This document shows, piece by piece, positions 3,479-13,446 of a DNA stretch of 33,446 nt (positions are counted from its first letter, which is position 1; the number at the start of each line of letters is the position of its first letter). The notes below the pieces were generated by a model. It was not told the DNA's origin, made no database searches, and saw nothing but the letters and a program-made list of their open reading frames with translations. Location of the stretch: assembly GCA_001789355.1 (NCBI GenBank), contig MFZI01000023.1:1-33446 (forward strand), in the 5' to 3' direction. The translations under genes were made by a program, and so were the position numbers. This DNA is from Candidatus Roizmanbacteria bacterium RIFCSPHIGHO2_01_FULL_39_8 (lineage in GTDB: Bacteria > Patescibacteriota > Microgenomatia > UBA1406 > GWC2-37-13).

Positions 3479-3934
3479 ATGACAACAATAACCAAGAAGA
3501 CTACGAATAAACCCACTGGATTCTCCGATGATGAGCGAACGGCGATGAAGGAGCGTGCCAAAGAATTGATGGCAGAGGCACGGTCAAGCAAAAACAAAGC
3601 TCAAGGCGAAAGAGACGTTCTCGAAGCAATCGTAAAGATGCCGGAGCCGGATCGCGCCATCGGCAAGCGGCTCCATGCGATTATCAAAGCCAACGCGCCG
3701 ACCCTTTCTCCGAAAACCTGGTATGGGATGCCTGCGTATGCGAATAAGGACGGTAAGGTTGTTTGTTTCTTTCAAGCAGCGAGTAAATTTAAATACAGAT
3801 ATGCTACGCTTGGCTTCCAAGAAGATGCGAATCTTGATGAAGGGAGTATGTGGCCAACTTCGTTTGCGCTGACGAAGTTGACTCCCAGTGAAGAGGCGAA
3901 GATAGCTGTGCTTGTGAAAAAAGCAGTAAAGTGA
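3479..3934 (+). CDS. DUF1801 (YdhG-like) domain protein
   Basis: 151 aa. The central segment [35 protein letters not shown] matches the DUF1801 pattern. The gene is visibly more GC-rich than its surroundings. Confidence 0.65.
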
Positions 3935-3950
3935 CAGCCGAACACCATAT

Positions 3951-4481
3951 ATGAAAATCTTCCGGTTTAGTCCGATAAAAGATAAAAGTGAATTATTCAA
4001 AGCAATCCAATACATTCACTTTGAATCACATAGACTCTGTAGACAAAATTTAGGTTATCTCTTACCTGTTGCAGGAAATATCGGTGTTTTCTGTCATTAT
4101 GGAGACGAGTTTGAACAGTTGATCAAAATAAGAAAAGAGCTAACCGATCTTTCAGACAATTGGAACGAGAAATATTTCCGTCTTTATAAGTCAATTGTCA
4201 TCCCTGCTAAAGACGACATACCAGAGACAACGTATACGTATCTGTATATCCGCAAACCTGATCCAAATAACAGTCATGTCGGCGATGTAGACTTTTACCT
4301 TGAACCCGACAAATACAAAGAATTAAAAGAGTCCTTATTATCCGGAAAAATAATAAAGGGGGTAAAGATATTCGAAAGATCCGATCTTGATCTTGTCAGG
4401 CTACATGATCCGAATAGTGACGTAAGTGCTTTCGTCGGTAAAAAGACAATGCTCCAGAATGTAAAAGAAAAACACATTTAG
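3951..4481 (+). CDS. Hypothetical protein
   Basis: A 176-aa ORF starting 17 nt after the previous gene. No motif recognised. Confidence 0.55.
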   Translation: MKIFRFSPIKDKSELFKAIQYIHFESHRLCRQNLGYLLPVAGNIGVFCHYGDEFEQLIKIRKELTDLSDNWNEKYFRLYKSIVIPAKDDIPETTYTYLYIRKPDPNNSHVGDVDFYLEPDKYKELKESLLSGKIIKGVKIFERSDLDLVRLHDPNSDVSAFVGKKTMLQNVKEKHI

Positions 4482-4570
4482 AAAAGAAGAGTCCGTTGAG
4501 GTTTTAACTCAGAACATGATCCCCTCTCCATTTACTTACACTTCTAATAAACCTATAGTATAATATTCGG

Positions 4571-6115
4571 GTGAGAGAGAATCCAAATAGAAGCATTGCT
4601 GAGGCACAATTTCTGAAAGACCAATTTAATAATCTAGTGGAACAGGTGCAAGCGGATGTTTTACGCTACGCAGAAAGAGTAACCGGATCGGTTGATCTGG
4701 CCAATGAACTGTATATGATAACGTGGTGGGATGTTTTAGGAAGATTTCCCAATATTAGAAGAAAAGAGCGTATCCCATTTAAAGTATATTTTCAACGAGC
4801 CTTGAGGAGTAATTTTTTTGACTTTCAAGAAAGATCAAGGAGAACATTGAGTCTTGATCCACTTGGTGATGTCAAGGATGAAAGGGCAATTGCGATGGGT
4901 GAAACCCACGATCTAAACGAAGACCTGTACCGTGCATTGTATGGATTAGATCCACCATTAAGACAAGTTATATTATTGCAAAGCGAGGGATATAAGGAAA
5001 AAGAGTCGGCTGAATTAATGGGAATTTCACCCGCTTACTTTAAAGAGTTGTTAGCTGAAGCTCGTTTTTTATTGCAGCAAGAGATTTTTAGGGAAGAACT
5101 GACTGATCCAAAAGAAGCCAAACAAGAAGAATATGTAACAATAGAAGAAATCGCACAGAGATTACATTGGACATGGACCTCAACCGCAACACAACTTACT
5201 GCCTACAAAGACCAGGCAAGAAATGAGGGGGGAAGAACAATTATGGGAAGAATTCTTTTCCCGGTAAGCATATTGGAGCAACTTCAGAAAATACCTGAAG
5301 TCACTGTCCCTGCTTCGGACTGGTTGACCATTACTCAATTAACTCAATTGTTAGGAGTAGATTATAGATGGGTCGTAAGAAGACTATTTAAACTAACTTT
5401 TAAGGGTGAACTTAGAGTCGGTACCTTTCATAGAGTGGCAGTTCATTACCCGCCACAAAGTTTAGACGAATTAATGATAGAGCGCGATCGTGTTATTACA
5501 CCTCCTAATCCAGAAATTGAGCACACGATATCAGACCTAGCAATATTGACAAAAAGACATCCGCATTGGGTAGAAAAAAGACTCATTGAACATGGTATTG
5601 CACCAAAATACAGAAGACATTTTTCGGGAAACATATTTGCTTACTATGATCATTCTGTACTAGTAACTTTAATGAATGAGAGCTTAAAATATCCACTACT
5701 TGGAGATTATTTGACTATCCCTATGTTAACTAAAGCAACGGGTATGGATAGAGAGTGGGTGATTAAAAAACTACATGAACTTGGAATAACCGGTGAACAG
5801 AGAGAGCATCCTGCTTTTCACCGAAGAGTTTATACTAGTTATCCACCTTCTACACTAAATAACCTCATTTCTTTAGCAGGAGACTATAAGAAAGCAGAAG
5901 ATGGATGGTTAACTCTAACGGCCTTAGAAACAAAAGTGGGAAAATCCAGTAGATGGATATTAAAAAGACTCGGAGAAATAAATGTAACCACTATTATGCA
6001 AAGAGATTCAAGGGGAGCGTTGCGAATACACTATCCTCCTGCAGTTCTGCACGAATTATTGCAAGCAAAACAAATGGAAGAAGATAGAAAGCATGCAAAA
6101 AAGTGGTATGAGTGA
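4571..6115 (+). CDS. Sigma-70/ECF-like N-terminal domain fused to five tandem excisionase/MerR-type HTH-like repeats
   Basis: GTG start. Region-2-like DLANELYMITWWDVL and region-4-like LRQVILLQSEGYKEKESAELMGISPAYFKELLAEARFLL. These are followed by five modules of about 63-66 aa, each [WY]LT[IL]..L....G....W[IV]...L.......G.....YPP..L..L. Confidence 0.7.
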   Translation: MRENPNRSIAEAQFLKDQFNNLVEQVQADVLRYAERVTGSVDLANELYMITWWDVLGRFPNIRRKERIPFKVYFQRALRSNFFDFQERSRRTLSLDPLGDVKDERAIAMGETHDLNEDLYRALYGLDPPLRQVILLQSEGYKEKESAELMGISPAYFKELLAEARFLLQQEIFREELTDPKEAKQEEYVTIEEIAQRLHWTWTSTATQLTAYKDQARNEGGRTIMGRILFPVSILEQLQKIPEVTVPASDWLTITQLTQLLGVDYRWVVRRLFKLTFKGELRVGTFHRVAVHYPPQSLDELMIERDRVITPPNPEIEHTISDLAILTKRHPHWVEKRLIEHGIAPKYRRHFSGNIFAYYDHSVLVTLMNESLKYPLLGDYLTIPMLTKATGMDREWVIKKLHELGITGEQREHPAFHRRVYTSYPPSTLNNLISLAGDYKKAEDGWLTLTALETKVGKSSRWILKRLGEINVTTIMQRDSRGALRIHYPPAVLHELLQAKQMEEDRKHAKKWYE

Positions 6116-6203
6116 GTGTTTACATACTTTATTTCAACCTTCCTCTTCCTAAAACATGTTAACTAAGGGGGAACACTTCGTCGAGCTCAGTGCAAGCCAA
6201 TCA

Positions 6204-6965
6204 TTATTTACAATAATCGCTTGATTTGCCACTCTGATAATCTGAGGATGGAAGAGCTAAAACTTTTGTTTTATCTTCAGATGAAATCCAATCAAACCAA
6301 CAAACTGCATAATGTTCAATTTCGTAAGTATGTTTGGCGACCCAAGCAGGATCTTTTGAGGATTCGTTCTTTTGCCTATAATCATATACTCCCCAGTCTA
6401 CAAAAGTATTAAGGCCTCCCAAAGCACTCGGACCTCCCTTGGTCAAACCAACCGCAGTGGCAATAATTTCTCCTTGCTTCACTTTTATCGGTGGATATAC
6501 TTCCGTGGTTCTTGAATCCAATCCTTTAGGTAGGGGAAATTTATCGGCGATGGCTTGGAATTTTGGCGTTAGGGTAAGCAAGTGACCAAAGCGGTACCTA
6601 ATTCCACAGGGATGGGTAAAATCAAAAGTATATTGAATTTCGCCGTCCACCGGATATCGAGCTCCGGCAATTACTTCAGCATCATAAGGAGCCACTACCT
6701 TGATCTCATCAGGATGAGAATTATCAAATCTAAAGCCCCCATGCGCTTTATATTCTCCACCTCTATATTGTCCGGGATAAAGAATTGATGTAACCCTATT
6801 TATATCTACCGGCATCTGGAAAACAAACGGACTTGGGCAAGATTCATATGATTTTGTAAATTGCTTGATTTGCCCCATCGGCAATATCTTTTCCGGATCC
6901 CGGATAAGTGCAGCAATAATAAATAACAAAAAACCCGTTACAATAACAAGTAAAATTTTCCTCAT
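6204..6965 (-). CDS. Signal-anchored secreted protein, possibly LytM/M23-like fold (catalytic HxH not seen)
   Basis: N-terminal hydrophobic helix MRKILLVIVTGFLLFIIAALI. The motif order AHGGFRFD ... VVAPYDAEVIAGA ... FGHLL ... VKQGEIIATAVG resembles M23 topology. Confidence 0.5.
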   Translation of the reverse strand: MRKILLVIVTGFLLFIIAALIRDPEKILPMGQIKQFTKSYESCPSPFVFQMPVDINRVTSILYPGQYRGGEYKAHGGFRFDNSHPDEIKVVAPYDAEVIAGARYPVDGEIQYTFDFTHPCGIRYRFGHLLTLTPKFQAIADKFPLPKGLDSRTTEVYPPIKVKQGEIIATAVGLTKGGPSALGGLNTFVDWGVYDYRQKNESSKDPAWVAKHTYEIEHYAVCWFDWISSEDKTKVLALPSSDYQSGKSSDYCK

Positions 6966-7198
6966 ACTTAAATTTATTATATTTTAGTTATGCGATGCAA
7001 ATGCAGTGATATTTATTATTTAACTGGATCGTTCGTAGAGAGAATGTTTCACCTCATCATAAAAGGCGGCAGCAGAAGATGTGCATCCTGTCGTTTTTGA
7101 AAGATCGCGAGGATTTGGGGGCTACACCCTTTGTATCCCAAAATATCGATACTTTTATCTCTTCGAGAAAGAAACTTCATGAGGCTATTATACTCCTT

Positions 7199-8311
7199 TT
7201 AGGCGCTTACGATCTGTTCCCAGGAAAAGTGATTGCGGCCAAAATGCCCATAGCAGGAGGTGTCCCTATAGATCGGTCTTCGCAAATCAAGCTTCTCCAA
7301 AATTCCTGCCACTGAGGTATCAAGTATCTTATTCACGAAGTCTTTTATTACTTTGTTTGACTTTTTTGCAGTTCCAAATGTCTCGACATCCTGCATGATC
7401 GGCTTTTTTGCACCGATGAAATAGGCTAAGCGTACTTCTGCCTTGTCTGCAAGCTTGTGTGCGACGATGTTTTTGGCCAAAAAGCGTGCCGCGTAAGCGC
7501 CGGACCGATCGACTTTGGTCGGGTCTTTGCCGCTAAAAGCTCCTCCACCCACTCGTGCGTAGCCACCATAGGTGTCAACAATTATTTTTCGCCCCGTCAC
7601 ACCGGTATCAGAGGCCGGCCCGCCAAAATGCCAGATTCCGGTCCCATTTACGATCACGTCTTTCGTTTCTATCGCAAATCCATATGATTTCAGCACCGGT
7701 TTAATTATTTTTTTATAGACATCGCTCTTTACTTGCTTCAGATGGACCGATTCTTTATGCGGAACAGCAATCACCACTGTCTGAACTTTGTAAGGTTTTC
7801 CGTTTTTATACTCCACGGTAACCTGGGTTTTTCCATCCGGTCGAAGATAAGATAAGATGTTTTTCTCCCTCACTTGATCTATCTTTTGAGCCAAAGTGTG
7901 AGCGATACTTATAGCGATCGGCATCAGGGTATCGGTATCCCGACAAGCAAAGCCAAACATCATTCCCTGGTCTCCCGCTCCCGCAACATCTACACCCGCT
8001 GCAATCTCTCTCGACTGGGCATGGACATAAATATCTATGGGAGATCGGAAAGAAAAGTTTAATTCTTTGCTTGTATAGCCGAGCGCCTTGATTTCATTTC
8101 GGGCCACTTTGTCAAAATCTATCTTGTATCGTGAGGTTATTTCACCCGCTAGTGTCATCTGGTTGTAAGTAACAAGCGTTTCGATAGCTACTCTCCCGTA
8201 CGGATCTTTTGCAAGAACGTTATCCACGATAGCATCGCTTACTCGATCACAAATTTTGTCTGGATGACCTGCACAGACCGATTCTGAGGTAAACGTATAT
8301 GAGTTGGACAT
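7199..8311 (-). CDS. metK: S-adenosylmethionine synthetase
   Basis: FTSESVCAGHPDKICDRVSDAIVD, GAGDQGMMFGFA, GGGAFSGKDPTKVDRSGAY: canonical MetK motifs throughout 370 aa. Confidence 0.95.
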   Translation of the reverse strand: MSNSYTFTSESVCAGHPDKICDRVSDAIVDNVLAKDPYGRVAIETLVTYNQMTLAGEITSRYKIDFDKVARNEIKALGYTSKELNFSFRSPIDIYVHAQSREIAAGVDVAGAGDQGMMFGFACRDTDTLMPIAISIAHTLAQKIDQVREKNILSYLRPDGKTQVTVEYKNGKPYKVQTVVIAVPHKESVHLKQVKSDVYKKIIKPVLKSYGFAIETKDVIVNGTGIWHFGGPASDTGVTGRKIIVDTYGGYARVGGGAFSGKDPTKVDRSGAYAARFLAKNIVAHKLADKAEVRLAYFIGAKKPIMQDVETFGTAKKSNKVIKDFVNKILDTSVAGILEKLDLRRPIYRDTSCYGHFGRNHFSWEQIVSA

Positions 8312-10374: not shown

Positions 10375-10444
10375 CAAGGCCATAAATGCAACCGAGCCGG
10401 TTGCAGAAAGGCTTACAGTACAATCTAATATTCATCATTTCTAA

Positions 10445-10473
10445 TTGAAAAAGAATTGGATAAAAAGTATAAT
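10445..10473 (+). promoter_or_regulatory. Sigma-70-type promoter for the intron-containing tRNA gene
   Basis: TTGAAA (10445-10450), a 17-nt spacer, then TATAAT (10468-10473), 10 nt upstream of tRNA position 1. Confidence 0.45.
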
Positions 10474-10483
10474 ATGCACAATA

Positions 10484-10747
10484 TACGGGGTAGTGTACGG
10501 TTGCACAGGAGGCTCAAATATGGGCTCATTTCGAAGTAATTCGAGACTAGAAAATTCGGCTGTATCGGTGGAATCCTTCGAGTCGGAGGGCAATACCGAG
10601 GAAACCTTAACATGAGGTTTAAGGGATCCGTAGAGACTATACGCCGAATCCCGATTAAATCGGGAAAGATATAGTCCGACACTCTTGGTAACAAGAGAAA
10701 CCGGTAGCATAATCTCCTAGACCGTGGTTCAACTCCCGGCCCCGTAA
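10484..10747 (+). tRNA. tRNA with anticodon CAU (Met or Ile2/lysidine type) interrupted by a group I intron; exons 10484-10514 and 10708-10747
   Basis: Spliced product is 71 nt. Acceptor TACGGGG/CCCCGTA with A73, U8, D stem GTGT/GCAC with a GG loop. Anticodon stem GGAGG/TCTCC and loop CT-CAT-AA. T loop GG-TTCAACT-CC. The T stem has one bulged T (CCG-T-GG/CCCGG). No CCA is encoded. Confidence 0.7.
10515..10707 (+). ncRNA. Group I self-splicing intron (small, ORF-less, IC3-like)
   Basis: The intron follows U33 and ends in G (10707). P1 is GGCU|C paired to GGGCU, with a U.G at the splice site. P10 is UAUG paired to the 3' exon CAUA. P2 is TCGAA-GTAA-TTCGA and P3 is ATTCGGC/GCCGAAT. P4 is GGAATCC/GGATCC with a bulged A, P7 is GACTAT/ATAGTC and P8 is CCCGA-TTAAA-TCGGG. 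P9 is CTCTTG-GTAA-CAAGAG. The conserved strings GTAGAGACTATACG and AAGATATAGTCC are also present. Confidence 0.8.
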
Positions 10748-10780
10748 CATAGGTAGTAAAGAAATGCTATACTATTCTTC

Positions 10781-11713
10781 ATGACCAACTTCCTCATTTC
10801 GATAGTCATTCCCGTCTACAACGAAGAGCAAAACATCCAACCACTCCTTAAAACACTTATTCCTATCCTCAAACCATATCAATATGAAATTATTTTTGTC
10901 GATGACGGGTCTAAAGATCAGACTATTCCGCTCATAAAACAAGAGGCTAAAAAATCTCAAAGCGTCAAACTCCTTAGCTTCCAGCGCAATTTCGGCCATC
11001 AGATGGCCCTCACCGCAGGCTACCACTTTGCTAAAGGTGCTTGTACGATTACTCTTGATGCAGACCTTCAGGATCCACCTGATATTATTCCCAAAATGAT
11101 CGAGAGGTGGGAAAAGGGGGCAAAAATTGTCTACGCAAAGCGAACAAAAAGAGATTCCGACAGTTTCTTTAAAAAATTGACTGCCCAGGCATTTTATCGT
11201 TTCATCAATTTCCTCTCCGACACACAGATCCCAGATGACGTCGGTGATTTTCGCTTGCTTGATCGTGAAGTCGTAGACTTTCTCAAAGGACTTCCGGAAC
11301 AGTCCCGCTTCTTACGCGGTCTTGTAGCCTGGTCTGGATTCCCCGCCTCTTATGTTACTTTTGAAAGACAGAAAAGGCACGCCGGTGAAACCCACTATCC
11401 CTTCTCCAAAATGCTCAACTTTGCACTAGAGGGCATTGCCTCATTTTCAGTAAAACCTCTTCGGCTTTCCATCTATTTGGGGTTTATTGCATCGGCCCTA
11501 AGTATTTTGGTGATCGCTTTTAAATCAGTACAGCATTTTATTTTCCACCAAGGTGATTGGCTACCGGGCTGGGCCTCACTTTTTTTCTCCATCGTTTTCC
11601 TGGGGGGGATTCAGCTTATTACCATAGGTATTATTGGTGAGTATGTAGGCAAAATATATAAAGAAGTACAAAAACGGCCACAGTTTTTGATAAAAGAGAA
11701 AATTAATCTTTAG
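10781..11713 (+). CDS. Family 2 glycosyltransferase, polyprenol-phosphate sugar transferase type (GtrB/ArnC/DPM1-like)
   Basis: ISIVIPVYNEE, IIFVDDGSKD, LDADLQDPP motifs plus two C-terminal TM helices. Confidence 0.9.
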   Translation: MTNFLISIVIPVYNEEQNIQPLLKTLIPILKPYQYEIIFVDDGSKDQTIPLIKQEAKKSQSVKLLSFQRNFGHQMALTAGYHFAKGACTITLDADLQDPPDIIPKMIERWEKGAKIVYAKRTKRDSDSFFKKLTAQAFYRFINFLSDTQIPDDVGDFRLLDREVVDFLKGLPEQSRFLRGLVAWSGFPASYVTFERQKRHAGETHYPFSKMLNFALEGIASFSVKPLRLSIYLGFIASALSILVIAFKSVQHFIFHQGDWLPGWASLFFSIVFLGGIQLITIGIIGEYVGKIYKEVQKRPQFLIKEKINL

Positions 11714-12041: not shown

Positions 12042-12410
12042 TTATGGACCTGGTATCTCCAACTTAAACAACTTACAGCTGCTTCCGAATCCTCCCAAGA
12101 AAAGAACGCAGATGATATTGAGGATAAGATAGGCGCTCACGAAGAGAATGAGACCTAGGATTGCAAATTTAAGTGTCCCCTGGGCTTTTTTTACCCCTTC
12201 CGGATTGCCAAGTGAAGTGAGGTAGCGAAATGCGCCGACGACGAACATGATGAATAATACAAGAACAAAAAGAGCCGAAGACATAAAAAGAATATTTCCA
12301 AAAACTACTTCGAGACATTTTAGGGTTGGCACTTCTACCCCCCCAACGTCAACTAAACAACCCGAAGTTGCCCAATCTCTCACCTGAGCATTGACGACAA
12401 AATTATACAT
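12042..12410 (-). CDS. TrbC/VirB2-like 'T4SS pilin' family protein (divergent paralog)
   Basis: Two-TM hairpin with the loop motif YLTSLGNPEGVKKAQGTLKFAILGLILF. This matches the (S/T)xGGNxE..KAK..I...I.G pattern of T4SS-pilin-like proteins. Confidence 0.6.
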   Translation of the reverse strand: MYNFVVNAQVRDWATSGCLVDVGGVEVPTLKCLEVVFGNILFMSSALFVLVLFIMFVVGAFRYLTSLGNPEGVKKAQGTLKFAILGLILFVSAYLILNIICVLFLGGFGSSCKLFKLEIPGP

Positions 12411-12445
12411 AAGGAAATATATGAAAGATTACCAAAATGGAGAAG

Positions 12446-12958
12446 TTATAGCAAGTTCGGTAAGGTAAGTGGGCAGGATATACCAAAGCATACAGCCTTT
12501 TTAAAAATGATTTGTTCAAAAACAACGATGATTGAAAGCACCGCAACAATAATAATAATTCCTAGTATTGCGGCAGTGATCTTGTCTCTTGCCTTATCAA
12601 CACTCTCTTTGTTACCACCTGAGGTGACCCAGGCCATAGCTCCCAAGAGAAGAAACATCAAAGCGAGTAATCCGGCAAGGACGAAAAAACCTCTAACCGC
12701 AAAAGTGAGAAAGGTACTCATCGTTGGGATTACAAAGCCAAGACCACCAGCGGTTACTGGACCGGTATTCACCCGAACAACCGTAGAAGGATCTGCACAG
12801 GCATTGCCTACCGCTTGACCGATTGCTGCACATGTAGCCGGGTCGCCTGGTGCAGCGAGAGTCTGTGCCCATTTAAATGTTTGAGTAGCAGCGTCAAGTT
12901 TACATTCACAAACAGCGTAAACTGGTCGAATTATTTTATCTAAAATTGCTTGTAACAT
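12446..12958 (-). CDS. TrbC/VirB2-like 'T4SS pilin' family protein
   Basis: C-terminal module LGFVIPTMSTFLTFAVRGFFVLAGLLALMFLLLGAMAWVTSGGNKESVDKARDKITAAILGIIIIVAVL...CFGISCPLTLPNLL. The N-terminal part is Cys-rich and variable. Confidence 0.7.
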   Translation of the reverse strand: MLQAILDKIIRPVYAVCECKLDAATQTFKWAQTLAAPGDPATCAAIGQAVGNACADPSTVVRVNTGPVTAGGLGFVIPTMSTFLTFAVRGFFVLAGLLALMFLLLGAMAWVTSGGNKESVDKARDKITAAILGIIIIVAVLSIIVVFEQIIFKKAVCFGISCPLTLPNLL

Positions 12959-12964
12959 ATTATC

Positions 12965-13390
12965 TTAAGGACCTGACTTTTGTAATAGATTAGGTAATAC
13001 AAGATCACACGATATTCCAAAACAAAGCTTTCCTTTGAATACCACTTGTTCTAATGTTACCATAATTGCCAAGACTGCTACAATGAGGACTACTCCCAAA
13101 ATTGCAGCGGTAATCTTGTCTCTTGCCTTATCTACACTTTCTTTATTTCCACCTGAGGTGACCCATCCCATAGCTCCCAAAAGAAGAAACATCAAAGCGA
13201 GTAACCCGGCAAGGACAAAAAAGCCTCGGATTGCAAAAGTGAGGAAGGTGCTAAAACTTGGAATAGTGAAACCCAGTTCTGAATCACTTATCTGAATTTG
13301 ATCCGTGGGAACAGGAGTAGAAGAGGGAACCTGGGCCAAAACTGACTTTACTAAAAAAGAGTTTATAAATTGGAAGATTTTAGCAACCAT
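12965..13390 (-). CDS. TrbC/VirB2-like 'T4SS pilin' family protein
   Basis: It has the same C-terminal module as 12446..12958, and the nucleotide blocks are nearly identical. The signal-like N-terminus is MVAKIFQFINSFLVKSVLAQ. The track start at 13435 is probably an upstream extension. Confidence 0.7.
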   Translation of the reverse strand: MVAKIFQFINSFLVKSVLAQVPSSTPVPTDQIQISDSELGFTIPSFSTFLTFAIRGFFVLAGLLALMFLLLGAMGWVTSGGNKESVDKARDKITAAILGVVLIVAVLAIMVTLEQVVFKGKLCFGISCDLVLPNLLQKSGP

Positions 13391-13446
13391 ATATTTCTTA
13401 CAAAAAAGAATACTCAATACAATATGCTTTGTCAAGCCCCATTTGA

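Follow-up and report, generated by a model that had tools for sequence, protein, structure and literature searches.

A compact group I intron without an open reading frame interrupts a probable initiator tRNA(CAU) gene in a bacterium of the Candidate Phyla Radiation

What kind of gene lies in a stretch of bacterial DNA where the six-frame translation offers nothing but a pair of small antisense open reading frames (ORFs)? The question was raised by a contig of 33,446 nucleotides (MFZI01000023.1, assembly GCA_001789355.1, positions 1 to 33,446 of the forward strand; hereafter, the window) from Candidatus Roizmanbacteria bacterium RIFCSPHIGHO2_01_FULL_39_8, a Rifle aquifer metagenome scaffold of a bacterium of the Candidate Phyla Radiation (CPR; Patescibacteria). 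A preliminary interpretation made from the letters alone, here called the sequence-only reading, had proposed that positions 10484–10747 hold a tRNA gene with the anticodon CAU that is split by a small group I intron. The antisense ORF pair of 89 amino acids each was present at 10425–10694 and 10441–10710, as that reading had it, and the coordinates and strings that it gave were all found in the sequence. The analysis described below makes it very likely that the locus is a chromosomal CPR tRNA(CAU) gene with an ORF-less 193-nt group I intron between U33 and C34, and that the tRNA is a probable initiator.

That a group I intron follows U33 of a tRNA(CAU) gene can be regarded as nearly certain. 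The intron occupies window positions 10515–10707 on the forward (+) strand, as do the other elements of the gene described below. When the region 10400–10800 was scanned with permissive filters, the Rfam model Intron_gpI (RF00028) matched 10505–10698 with a score of 67.4 bits (E = 3.8e-17; gathering score 50), which bears out the proposed family assignment. The alignment spanned the full model (positions 1–253 of 253) and aligned U10514 with the conserved U of the splice site, in a pair with G10523. The isolated intron had a fold z-score of −4.59 relative to 200 shuffles, and its centroid structure contained the helices P2, P3, P4, P5, P6, P8, and P9. The antisense ORFs had no Pfam match, even at E ≤ 1, and insertions and deletions relative to the related locus L011, from another species, break both frames. 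Consequently, a protein-coding reading was rejected.

Standard annotation did not recover the gene. ARAGORN with default settings found no tRNA in the whole window, and the whole-window Rfam scan with default filters and gathering thresholds returned only an S-adenosylmethionine (SAM) riboswitch and missed the intron. The same held for gathering-mode default scans of stretches of 25–33 kb in general (the window and L011), while in a scan of the 400-nt region the intron scored 17 bits above the gathering threshold. With intron detection enabled, ARAGORN agreed with the sequence-only reading in reporting a split gene, but misplaced the intron and called Leu(caa). Rfam gathering-mode annotations of such stretches will lack this tRNA, and under default ARAGORN plus Rfam annotation the genome seems to be without an essential CAU tRNA, with spurious antisense ORFs filling the gap.

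To define the splice sites, every pair of positions of the type “after U … after G” around the core was enumerated, and each was tested by ARAGORN. A single solution with a CAU anticodon, with the intron after loop position 2, was obtained for the window and for 41 related genome loci. This U(−1)/G(omega) solution is unique and places the intron between the anticodon-loop nucleotides 33 and 34. Ligation of the exons 10484–10514 and 10708–10747 gave a sequence of 71 nt, which ARAGORN called tRNA(cat). The ARAGORN placement after position 37 with the identity Leu(caa) was rejected, since the 5′ exon would end in A and the intron in U; it was also ruled out by the short variable loop and by the intron-less genes, which read CUCAUAA.

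Intron-less counterparts were sought by scanning metagenome contigs with the ligated-junction pattern GGTAGTGTA N4-6 GCAC NNN RGGCTCATAATCY, and at least 120 uninterrupted genes of the family were found. Among these, L102:103-173 agrees with the window's ligated exons at 71 of 71 positions, including an extra T in the T stem that is discussed below, and scored 44.6 bits on the Rfam tRNA model (RF00005; gathering score 29). The syntenic intron-less loci, in which the tRNA gene is followed by a family-2 glycosyltransferase gene (64–68% DNA identity), align with the window as far as position 10516 and again from 10708 onward. The two-base overlap of these alignments arises because CA occurs at both junctions, and the U(−1)/G(omega) rule resolves the junctions to 10514|10515 and 10707|10708. 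Both the joining of the exons into a 71-nt cloverleaf and the insertion after U33, with the whole anticodon in the 3′ exon, had been proposed beforehand; the former was confirmed by the ARAGORN call and the identical uninterrupted gene, the latter by the unique U/G solution and the orthologues with the exact junction. As a side observation, the glycosyltransferase gene lies 3′ of the tRNA gene in the syntenic intron-less loci, as in the window, while in L011 it flanks the tRNA gene on the opposite side and is reversed in orientation, indicating a local inversion relative to window 10484–11713.

Relatives of the intron were collected by searching a set of genomes, one for each species, for the core pattern GTAGAGACTATACG N15-45 GATATAGTCCGA. 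The 78 loci obtained were nearly all from CPR/Patescibacteria; about 51 shared the host tRNA(CAU) gene and the insertion site of the window, and the rest (about 27) lay in 16S or 23S rRNA genes. The 264-nt element of the window is present in identical copies in two other assemblies. At L011, the exons are identical to those of the window (71 of 71 positions) next to neighboring genes that are 64–69% identical. For the covariation analysis, 46 precursors were aligned with MAFFT (alignment A1), and base pairs were counted on the proposed structure.

The exons show the pattern expected of one interrupted tRNA. The 5′ exon (10484–10514; 31 nt, tRNA positions 1–33), which is 100% identical in L011 and L102, comprises the acceptor 5′ strand TACGGGG, U8, A9, the D arm, the anticodon-stem 5′ strand GGAGG, C32, and U33. 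The 3′ exon (10708–10747; 40 nt) supplies the anticodon CAU, A37, A38, the strand UCUCC, the variable loop UAGA, the T arm CCG[U]GG-UUCAACU-CCCGG, the acceptor 3′ strand CCCCGUA, and A73. In the anticodon stem, which spans the intron, 100% of the alignment cells were paired and three of the five pairs were changed on both sides; the corresponding values for the T stem were 99.6% and four of five.

The same comparison was made for the intron helices. P1 (10511–10526) pairs 10511–10516 with 10521–10526, with U10514.G10523 at the 5′ splice site; all 276 of its 276 cells were paired with no both-side changes, and the U.G pair was present in 46 of 46 sequences. The internal guide sequence UAUGGGCU was assigned to 10519–10526 by the RF00028 alignment, and P10, read directly from the sequence, pairs its UAUG (10519–10522) with CAUA of the 3′ exon (10708–10711). 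Direct reading of the listed precursors gave a P10 of 2–4 bp in the relatives. The P2 hairpin (10529–10546), with a GUAA tetraloop at 10536–10539, was found by the RF00028 alignment and the centroid fold, and the relatives have a hairpin of different sequence at this site. The P3 5′ strand AUUCGGC (10554–10560) pairs with GCCGAAU at 10643–10649, with 91% of cells paired and five of seven pairs changed on both sides. P4 (10565–10570 with 10594–10599; 99.3% of cells paired) encloses P5 (10574–10580 with 10584–10590), the two spanning 10565–10599. The segment 10600–10629, supported by the RF00028 alignment and the centroid fold, forms P6 (10600–10601 with 10628–10629), both pairs of which are G-C in 46 of 46 sequences, plus the hairpin P6a, which is variable in length and sequence among relatives.

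The catalytic core continues from 10630 to 10649 with J6/7 and the P7 5′ strand, GUAGAGACUAU (P7 at 10635–10640), J7/3 (AC), and the P3 3′ strand. It is followed by the P8 hairpin CCCGA-UUAAA-UCGGG (10650–10664), which is seen in the centroid fold and in which 93% of cells were paired and all four of four pairs were changed on both sides. J8/7 (AAAGAU) and the P7 3′ strand AUAGUC (10671–10676) together occupy 10665–10676 in the RF00028 alignment. The P9 hairpin CUCUUG-GUAA-CAAGAG (10682–10697) has a GNRA-type loop, which is GNRA in the relatives as well; 99.6% of its cells were paired, four of six pairs were changed on both sides, and a compensatory change separates the window from L011. The last intron nucleotide, the omega G at 10707, is invariant in alignment A1 (G224). 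Over the structure as a whole, the observed values exceeded those of all 500 shuffles, and when the 3′ partners were shifted, the share of paired cells fell by half. P2, P5, and P6a were poorly aligned by MAFFT, and their values of 47–70% paired cells are underestimates.

Most of the architecture in the sequence-only reading was recovered in this way: the GUAA loops of P2 and P9 as well as P3, P7, and P8 appeared in the RF00028 alignment, and the guide sequence, the U.G pair at the 5′ splice site, P10, and the intron-final G hold by the alignment and in the 46 homologues. The exception is the bulged A proposed for P4: the covariance-model alignment has a plain helix of 6 bp there. Two points count against the strength of the intron assignment. 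P7 and its flanks are invariant partly since they were used as the search pattern, and are uninformative there; and splicing is predicted here from the sequence. Self-splicing would be expected from membership in the family.

Which CAU tRNA is interrupted? Comparison across the family suggests that it belongs to a CPR-wide initiator family and not to tRNA-Ile2, and we consider this assignment likely. Most relatives begin with CGCGGGG and end with CCCCGCA-A, corresponding to a C1xA72 mismatch, G2:C71, C3:G70, and A73. Among 123 distinct tRNAs of the family, C1xA72 with G2:C71 occurred in 55, A1xA72 in 2, U1:A72 with G2:C71 in 50, and U1:A72 with A2:U71 in 16. The E. coli tRNA gene located at argG-rimP, which is metY, an initiator tRNA gene, has the same acceptor stem, CGCGGGG/CCCCGCA-A. 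A 1:72 mismatch, G2:C71, and C3:G70 are determinants for Fmt (PMC5389676). The anticodon stem of the window tRNA has A29:U41, G30:C40, and G31.U39, and this arrangement (au/GC/gu) is a documented natural initiator variant of mycoplasmas and alpha-proteobacteria (PMC5389676).

The neighboring tRNA genes, surveyed in a stretch of around 8 kb per genome, point in the same direction. A second, uninterrupted tRNA(CAU) of the elongator type was found nearby at 30 of 45 split-gene genome loci and at 73 of 118 intron-less metagenome loci. Among the genome loci scanned, eight had a tRNA-Ile(UAU) gene nearby, and in the metagenome set 24 loci combined tRNA-Ile(UAU) with the family tRNA and a second tRNA(CAU); where a UAU tRNA is present, Ile2(CAU) is dispensable (PMC8450103). 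It is on the acceptor stem, the anticodon-stem variant, and the neighboring tRNAs, including tRNA-Ile(UAU), that the reading of the family as an initiator is based. The neighboring elongator-type tRNA(CAU) starts with GCCAGGG or GGCAGGG; the family tRNA frequently forms clusters with it and with tRNA-Ile(UAU), at L009, L010, L013, L017, L019, L058, L063, L068, and others, and among the metagenome loci L085-L204. As read directly from their sequences, several of these elongator genes seem to have a mismatched A31/C39 as the lowest pair of the anticodon stem.

Several findings weigh against an initiator. The window tRNA has U1:A72, A2:U71, and C3:G70 and is without the initiator hallmarks of a 1:72 mismatch and G2:C71, and 66 of the 123 distinct family tRNAs have U1:A72. 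Instead of the three G:C pairs of initiators at 29:41, 30:40, and 31:39, the family has one throughout, and the whole family has U11:A24, as in elongators. A tRNAscan-SE-based pipeline labelled the family seed Gba28 as Ile2. In addition, the 33-kb window contains no other tRNA gene, no fmt, and no tilS.

The alternative that survives best, which we nevertheless regard as improbable, is that the interrupted gene encodes tRNA-Ile2, whose C34 would be converted to lysidine by TilS for the reading of AUA, as the label Ile2.2Ug implies (Williams, 2020). The labelled seed Gba28.Ile2.2Ug of the supplementary material is exactly the intron of L043 (Candidatus Gottesmanbacteria GW2011_GWA2_43_14), the family does not have the three anticodon-stem G:C pairs and A11:U24 of the textbook initiator, and position 1:72 of the window tRNA is a Watson–Crick pair. 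These points are set against a family acceptor stem (CGCGGGG/CCCCGCA-A73 with the C1xA72 mismatch) that matches the E. coli initiator, and against the tRNA-Ile(UAU) genes in the same loci, both at eight of the scanned genome loci and at the 24 metagenome loci with a second CAU tRNA. E. coli TilS uses C:G pairs at 4:69 and 5:68, while both pairs are G:C in the family. The au/GC/gu stem, moreover, is a known initiator variant (PMC5389676). The catalogue label “Ile2” probably misclassifies an atypical tRNA. Were the initiator reading true, the existing class label would need correcting, and in many CPR bacteria a step essential to the start of translation would hinge on self-splicing.

It is distinctly less likely that the gene is the elongator tRNA-Met of its lineage. 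The fully paired acceptor stem of the window tRNA, with U1:A72 and A2:U71, would be acceptable to EF-Tu, and U11:A24 fits an elongator as well; yet the gene is clearly orthologous to the C1xA72 family by its D arm, anticodon arm, and synteny, the change at 2:71 is compensatory, and in the relatives a distinct tRNA(CAU) of the GCCAGGG or GGCAGGG type adjoins the family gene. Least likely of all is a decaying pseudogene with a damaged tRNA and a non-splicing intron, for which one may cite the altered acceptor stem and the unusual extra U of the bulged T stem, where ARAGORN draws two mismatches, but against which stand exons that are 100% identical between genomes with adjacent genes of 64–69% identity, the compensatory 2:71 change, an extra nucleotide (U, C, or UU) at the same T-stem position in intron-less genes, a ligated sequence that passes the Rfam tRNA model, and an intact catalytic core scoring above the gathering threshold.

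Within the putative initiator family, the tRNA of the window's clade is, by comparison with its relatives, a derived form, with U1:A72 in place of C1xA72, A2:U71 in place of G2:C71, and a single additional pyrimidine in the T stem. A broader proposal can be put forward only tentatively, and we hold it to be rather doubtful as a whole: that the CPR “Ile2.2Ug” family is an initiator, that all translation initiation in many CPR lineages would depend on the self-splicing of a ribozyme, and that the initiator of the window's clade would have lost the 1x72 mismatch and G2:C71 and acquired a bulged T stem, pointing to formylation that is relaxed, altered, or absent there.

The additional T of the T stem is a genuine feature of the lineage. 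Within the genome set it was found only in the window and in L011, another species whose flanking genes are 64–69% identical to those of the window; it is identical in three assemblies and is also carried by intron-less genes, including L102, L117, and L192. In sister lineages this position is occupied by C or TT (CCGCGG, CCATGG, CCATTGG). The sequence-only reading had noted the bulged T, which is present, and had considered a sequencing indel; an origin by sequencing error was rejected, since the three assemblies, L011, and the intron-less genes all carry the same T.

A further observation concerns the elbow of the tRNA (window 10497–10502 and 10728–10734). Across the 123 distinct family tRNAs, the D-loop G18 position and T-loop position 55 strictly covary: A18 occurs with G55 in 43, G18 with U55 or C55 in 79, and U with U55 in 1, and there is no A18 tRNA with U55 or C55 and no G18 tRNA with G55. 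The family has T loops such as CGCAACU and UGCGACU instead of the usual UUCRANY. This pattern suggests an unusual elbow contact in the family.

How might the precursor be processed? The chemistry of group I splicing is established knowledge, and a plausible course can be laid out for this locus. Transcription would probably start from a candidate sigma-70-type promoter, TTGAAA-17 nt-TATAAT (10445–10473, + strand), which agrees with the consensus at 11 of 12 positions and has its end 10 nt before the first tRNA position; it is proposed from the consensus match, and its use is presumed. In P1, the guide at 10519–10526 would be paired with GGCU at the end of the 5′ exon and with the first bases of the intron, U10514.G10523 lying at the splice site; P1 and the anticodon stem would compete for G10511 and G10512. 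The attack after U10514 would then come from a free guanosine bound in P7. Next, G10707 would take the same guanosine site in P7, with P10 aligning the 3′ exon. Exon ligation would yield the 71-nt tRNA with the anticodon loop CUCAUAA and the junction …GGAGGCU|CAUAAUCUCC…. The ends would be finished by RNase P and the CCA-adding enzyme, the latter being needed because CCA is not encoded; the gene reads ACA after A73.

The place of this intron among known ones can be stated closely. Williams (2020; bioRxiv 10.1101/2020.01.27.920355) listed Leu.3Ug, Arg.5Ug, fMet.2Ug, and Ile2.5Ug as the classical bacterial tRNA intron classes and added 17 new ones. In this scheme, “2” denotes insertion after the second loop nucleotide, U33 (bioRxiv 10.1101/2020.01.27.920355), and the insertion site of the window intron is therefore the classical fMet.2Ug site. 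The site is not new, the intron family was catalogued in 2020 as Ile2.2Ug, and the window intron adds one member to that class. Group I introns are often carried by CPR tRNAs (PMC8172020).

The seed Gba28 resembles the window intron in its host tRNA family, its site after U33, and its length of 193 nt, with 72% identity between the introns. The two also have in common P3 UUCGGC/GCCGAA, the strings GUAGAGACUAUACG and GAUAUAGUCCGACA, and a P9 capped with a GNRA loop. In contrast to the seed, the tRNA of the window is of the derived subtype (U1:A72, A2:U71, extra T-stem U), and in contrast to the seed's label its host tRNA is read here as a likely initiator and not as Ile2. The cyanobacterial tRNA-fMet intron (fMet.2Ug), as papers citing Biniszkiewicz et al. 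(1994) describe it, is self-splicing and likewise interrupts an initiator tRNA gene after U33, its position being taken here from the class name of Williams and the seed Tpc1. Tpc1 has a P1 built on GGCU|CA…UGGGC, as in the window, but is 244 nt long with a more elaborate P9 region and 40% identity to the window intron. Any relationship between the cyanobacterial fMet intron and that of the window probably goes no further than membership in one broad intron group.

The Azoarcus intron, with 49% identity to that of the window, is similar in being compact and without P5abc, in its P2 tetraloop and single P9 hairpin with a GNRA loop, in a tail of around 10 nt (…AAACCGG) after P9 that ends in the terminal G, and in its location in the anticodon loop of a CAU tRNA. 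It differs in lying after U36 (the 5′ exon ends in CAU) of a proteobacterial tRNA-Ile2, and its self-splicing has been experimentally shown. The group I introns of CPR 16S and 23S rRNA genes have P7/J8-7 core strings in common with the tRNA introns. They differ in host genes and guide sequences, and after P7 they have GUCCGAAC or GUCCGAUC, compared with GUCCGACA in the tRNA introns. The rRNA context was confirmed for L038:4880-4927, within a large-subunit rRNA gene (3870–7245), and for L047:196-246, within a small-subunit rRNA gene (1–1762). The core was also seen in rRNA genes at L008, L022, L026, L030, L059, L061, L082, and other loci, and at several rRNA loci apparent coding sequence runs up to P7, which suggests a putative endonuclease gene inside the intron.

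With 193 nt, the intron is small by general standards and ordinary for its family. The introns of 47 family members measure 175–284 nt (median 199 nt), and 14 of them are shorter than 193 nt; the Azoarcus intron has 205 nt (PMC13168695). The smallness noted in the sequence-only reading was upheld, but its exceptional rank was not, as relatives reach down to 175 nt. The 284-nt intron at L058:3341-3693 has an insertion of around 90 nt in the P6 region, at P6a, and the 222-nt intron at L077:4201-4492 has an extra hairpin after P9. The locus provides a mapped and comparatively validated example of a very compact group I ribozyme of 193 nt, and the natural variants of 175–230 nt and the intron-less alleles at the orthologous site are useful for work on minimal ribozymes and on intron gain and loss in CPR bacteria.

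Two features elsewhere in the window were recorded. The riboswitch returned by the Rfam scan is of the SAM-I/IV type (RF01725; 8335–8447, − strand; 45.9 bits against a gathering score of 41.1) and lies in the leader of an S-adenosylmethionine synthetase gene (7199–8311, − strand), which is the expected arrangement. Three tandem small genes at 12042–13435 (− strand) gave weak matches to PF18895 (type IV secretion system pilin), and such genes are common in CPR genomes.

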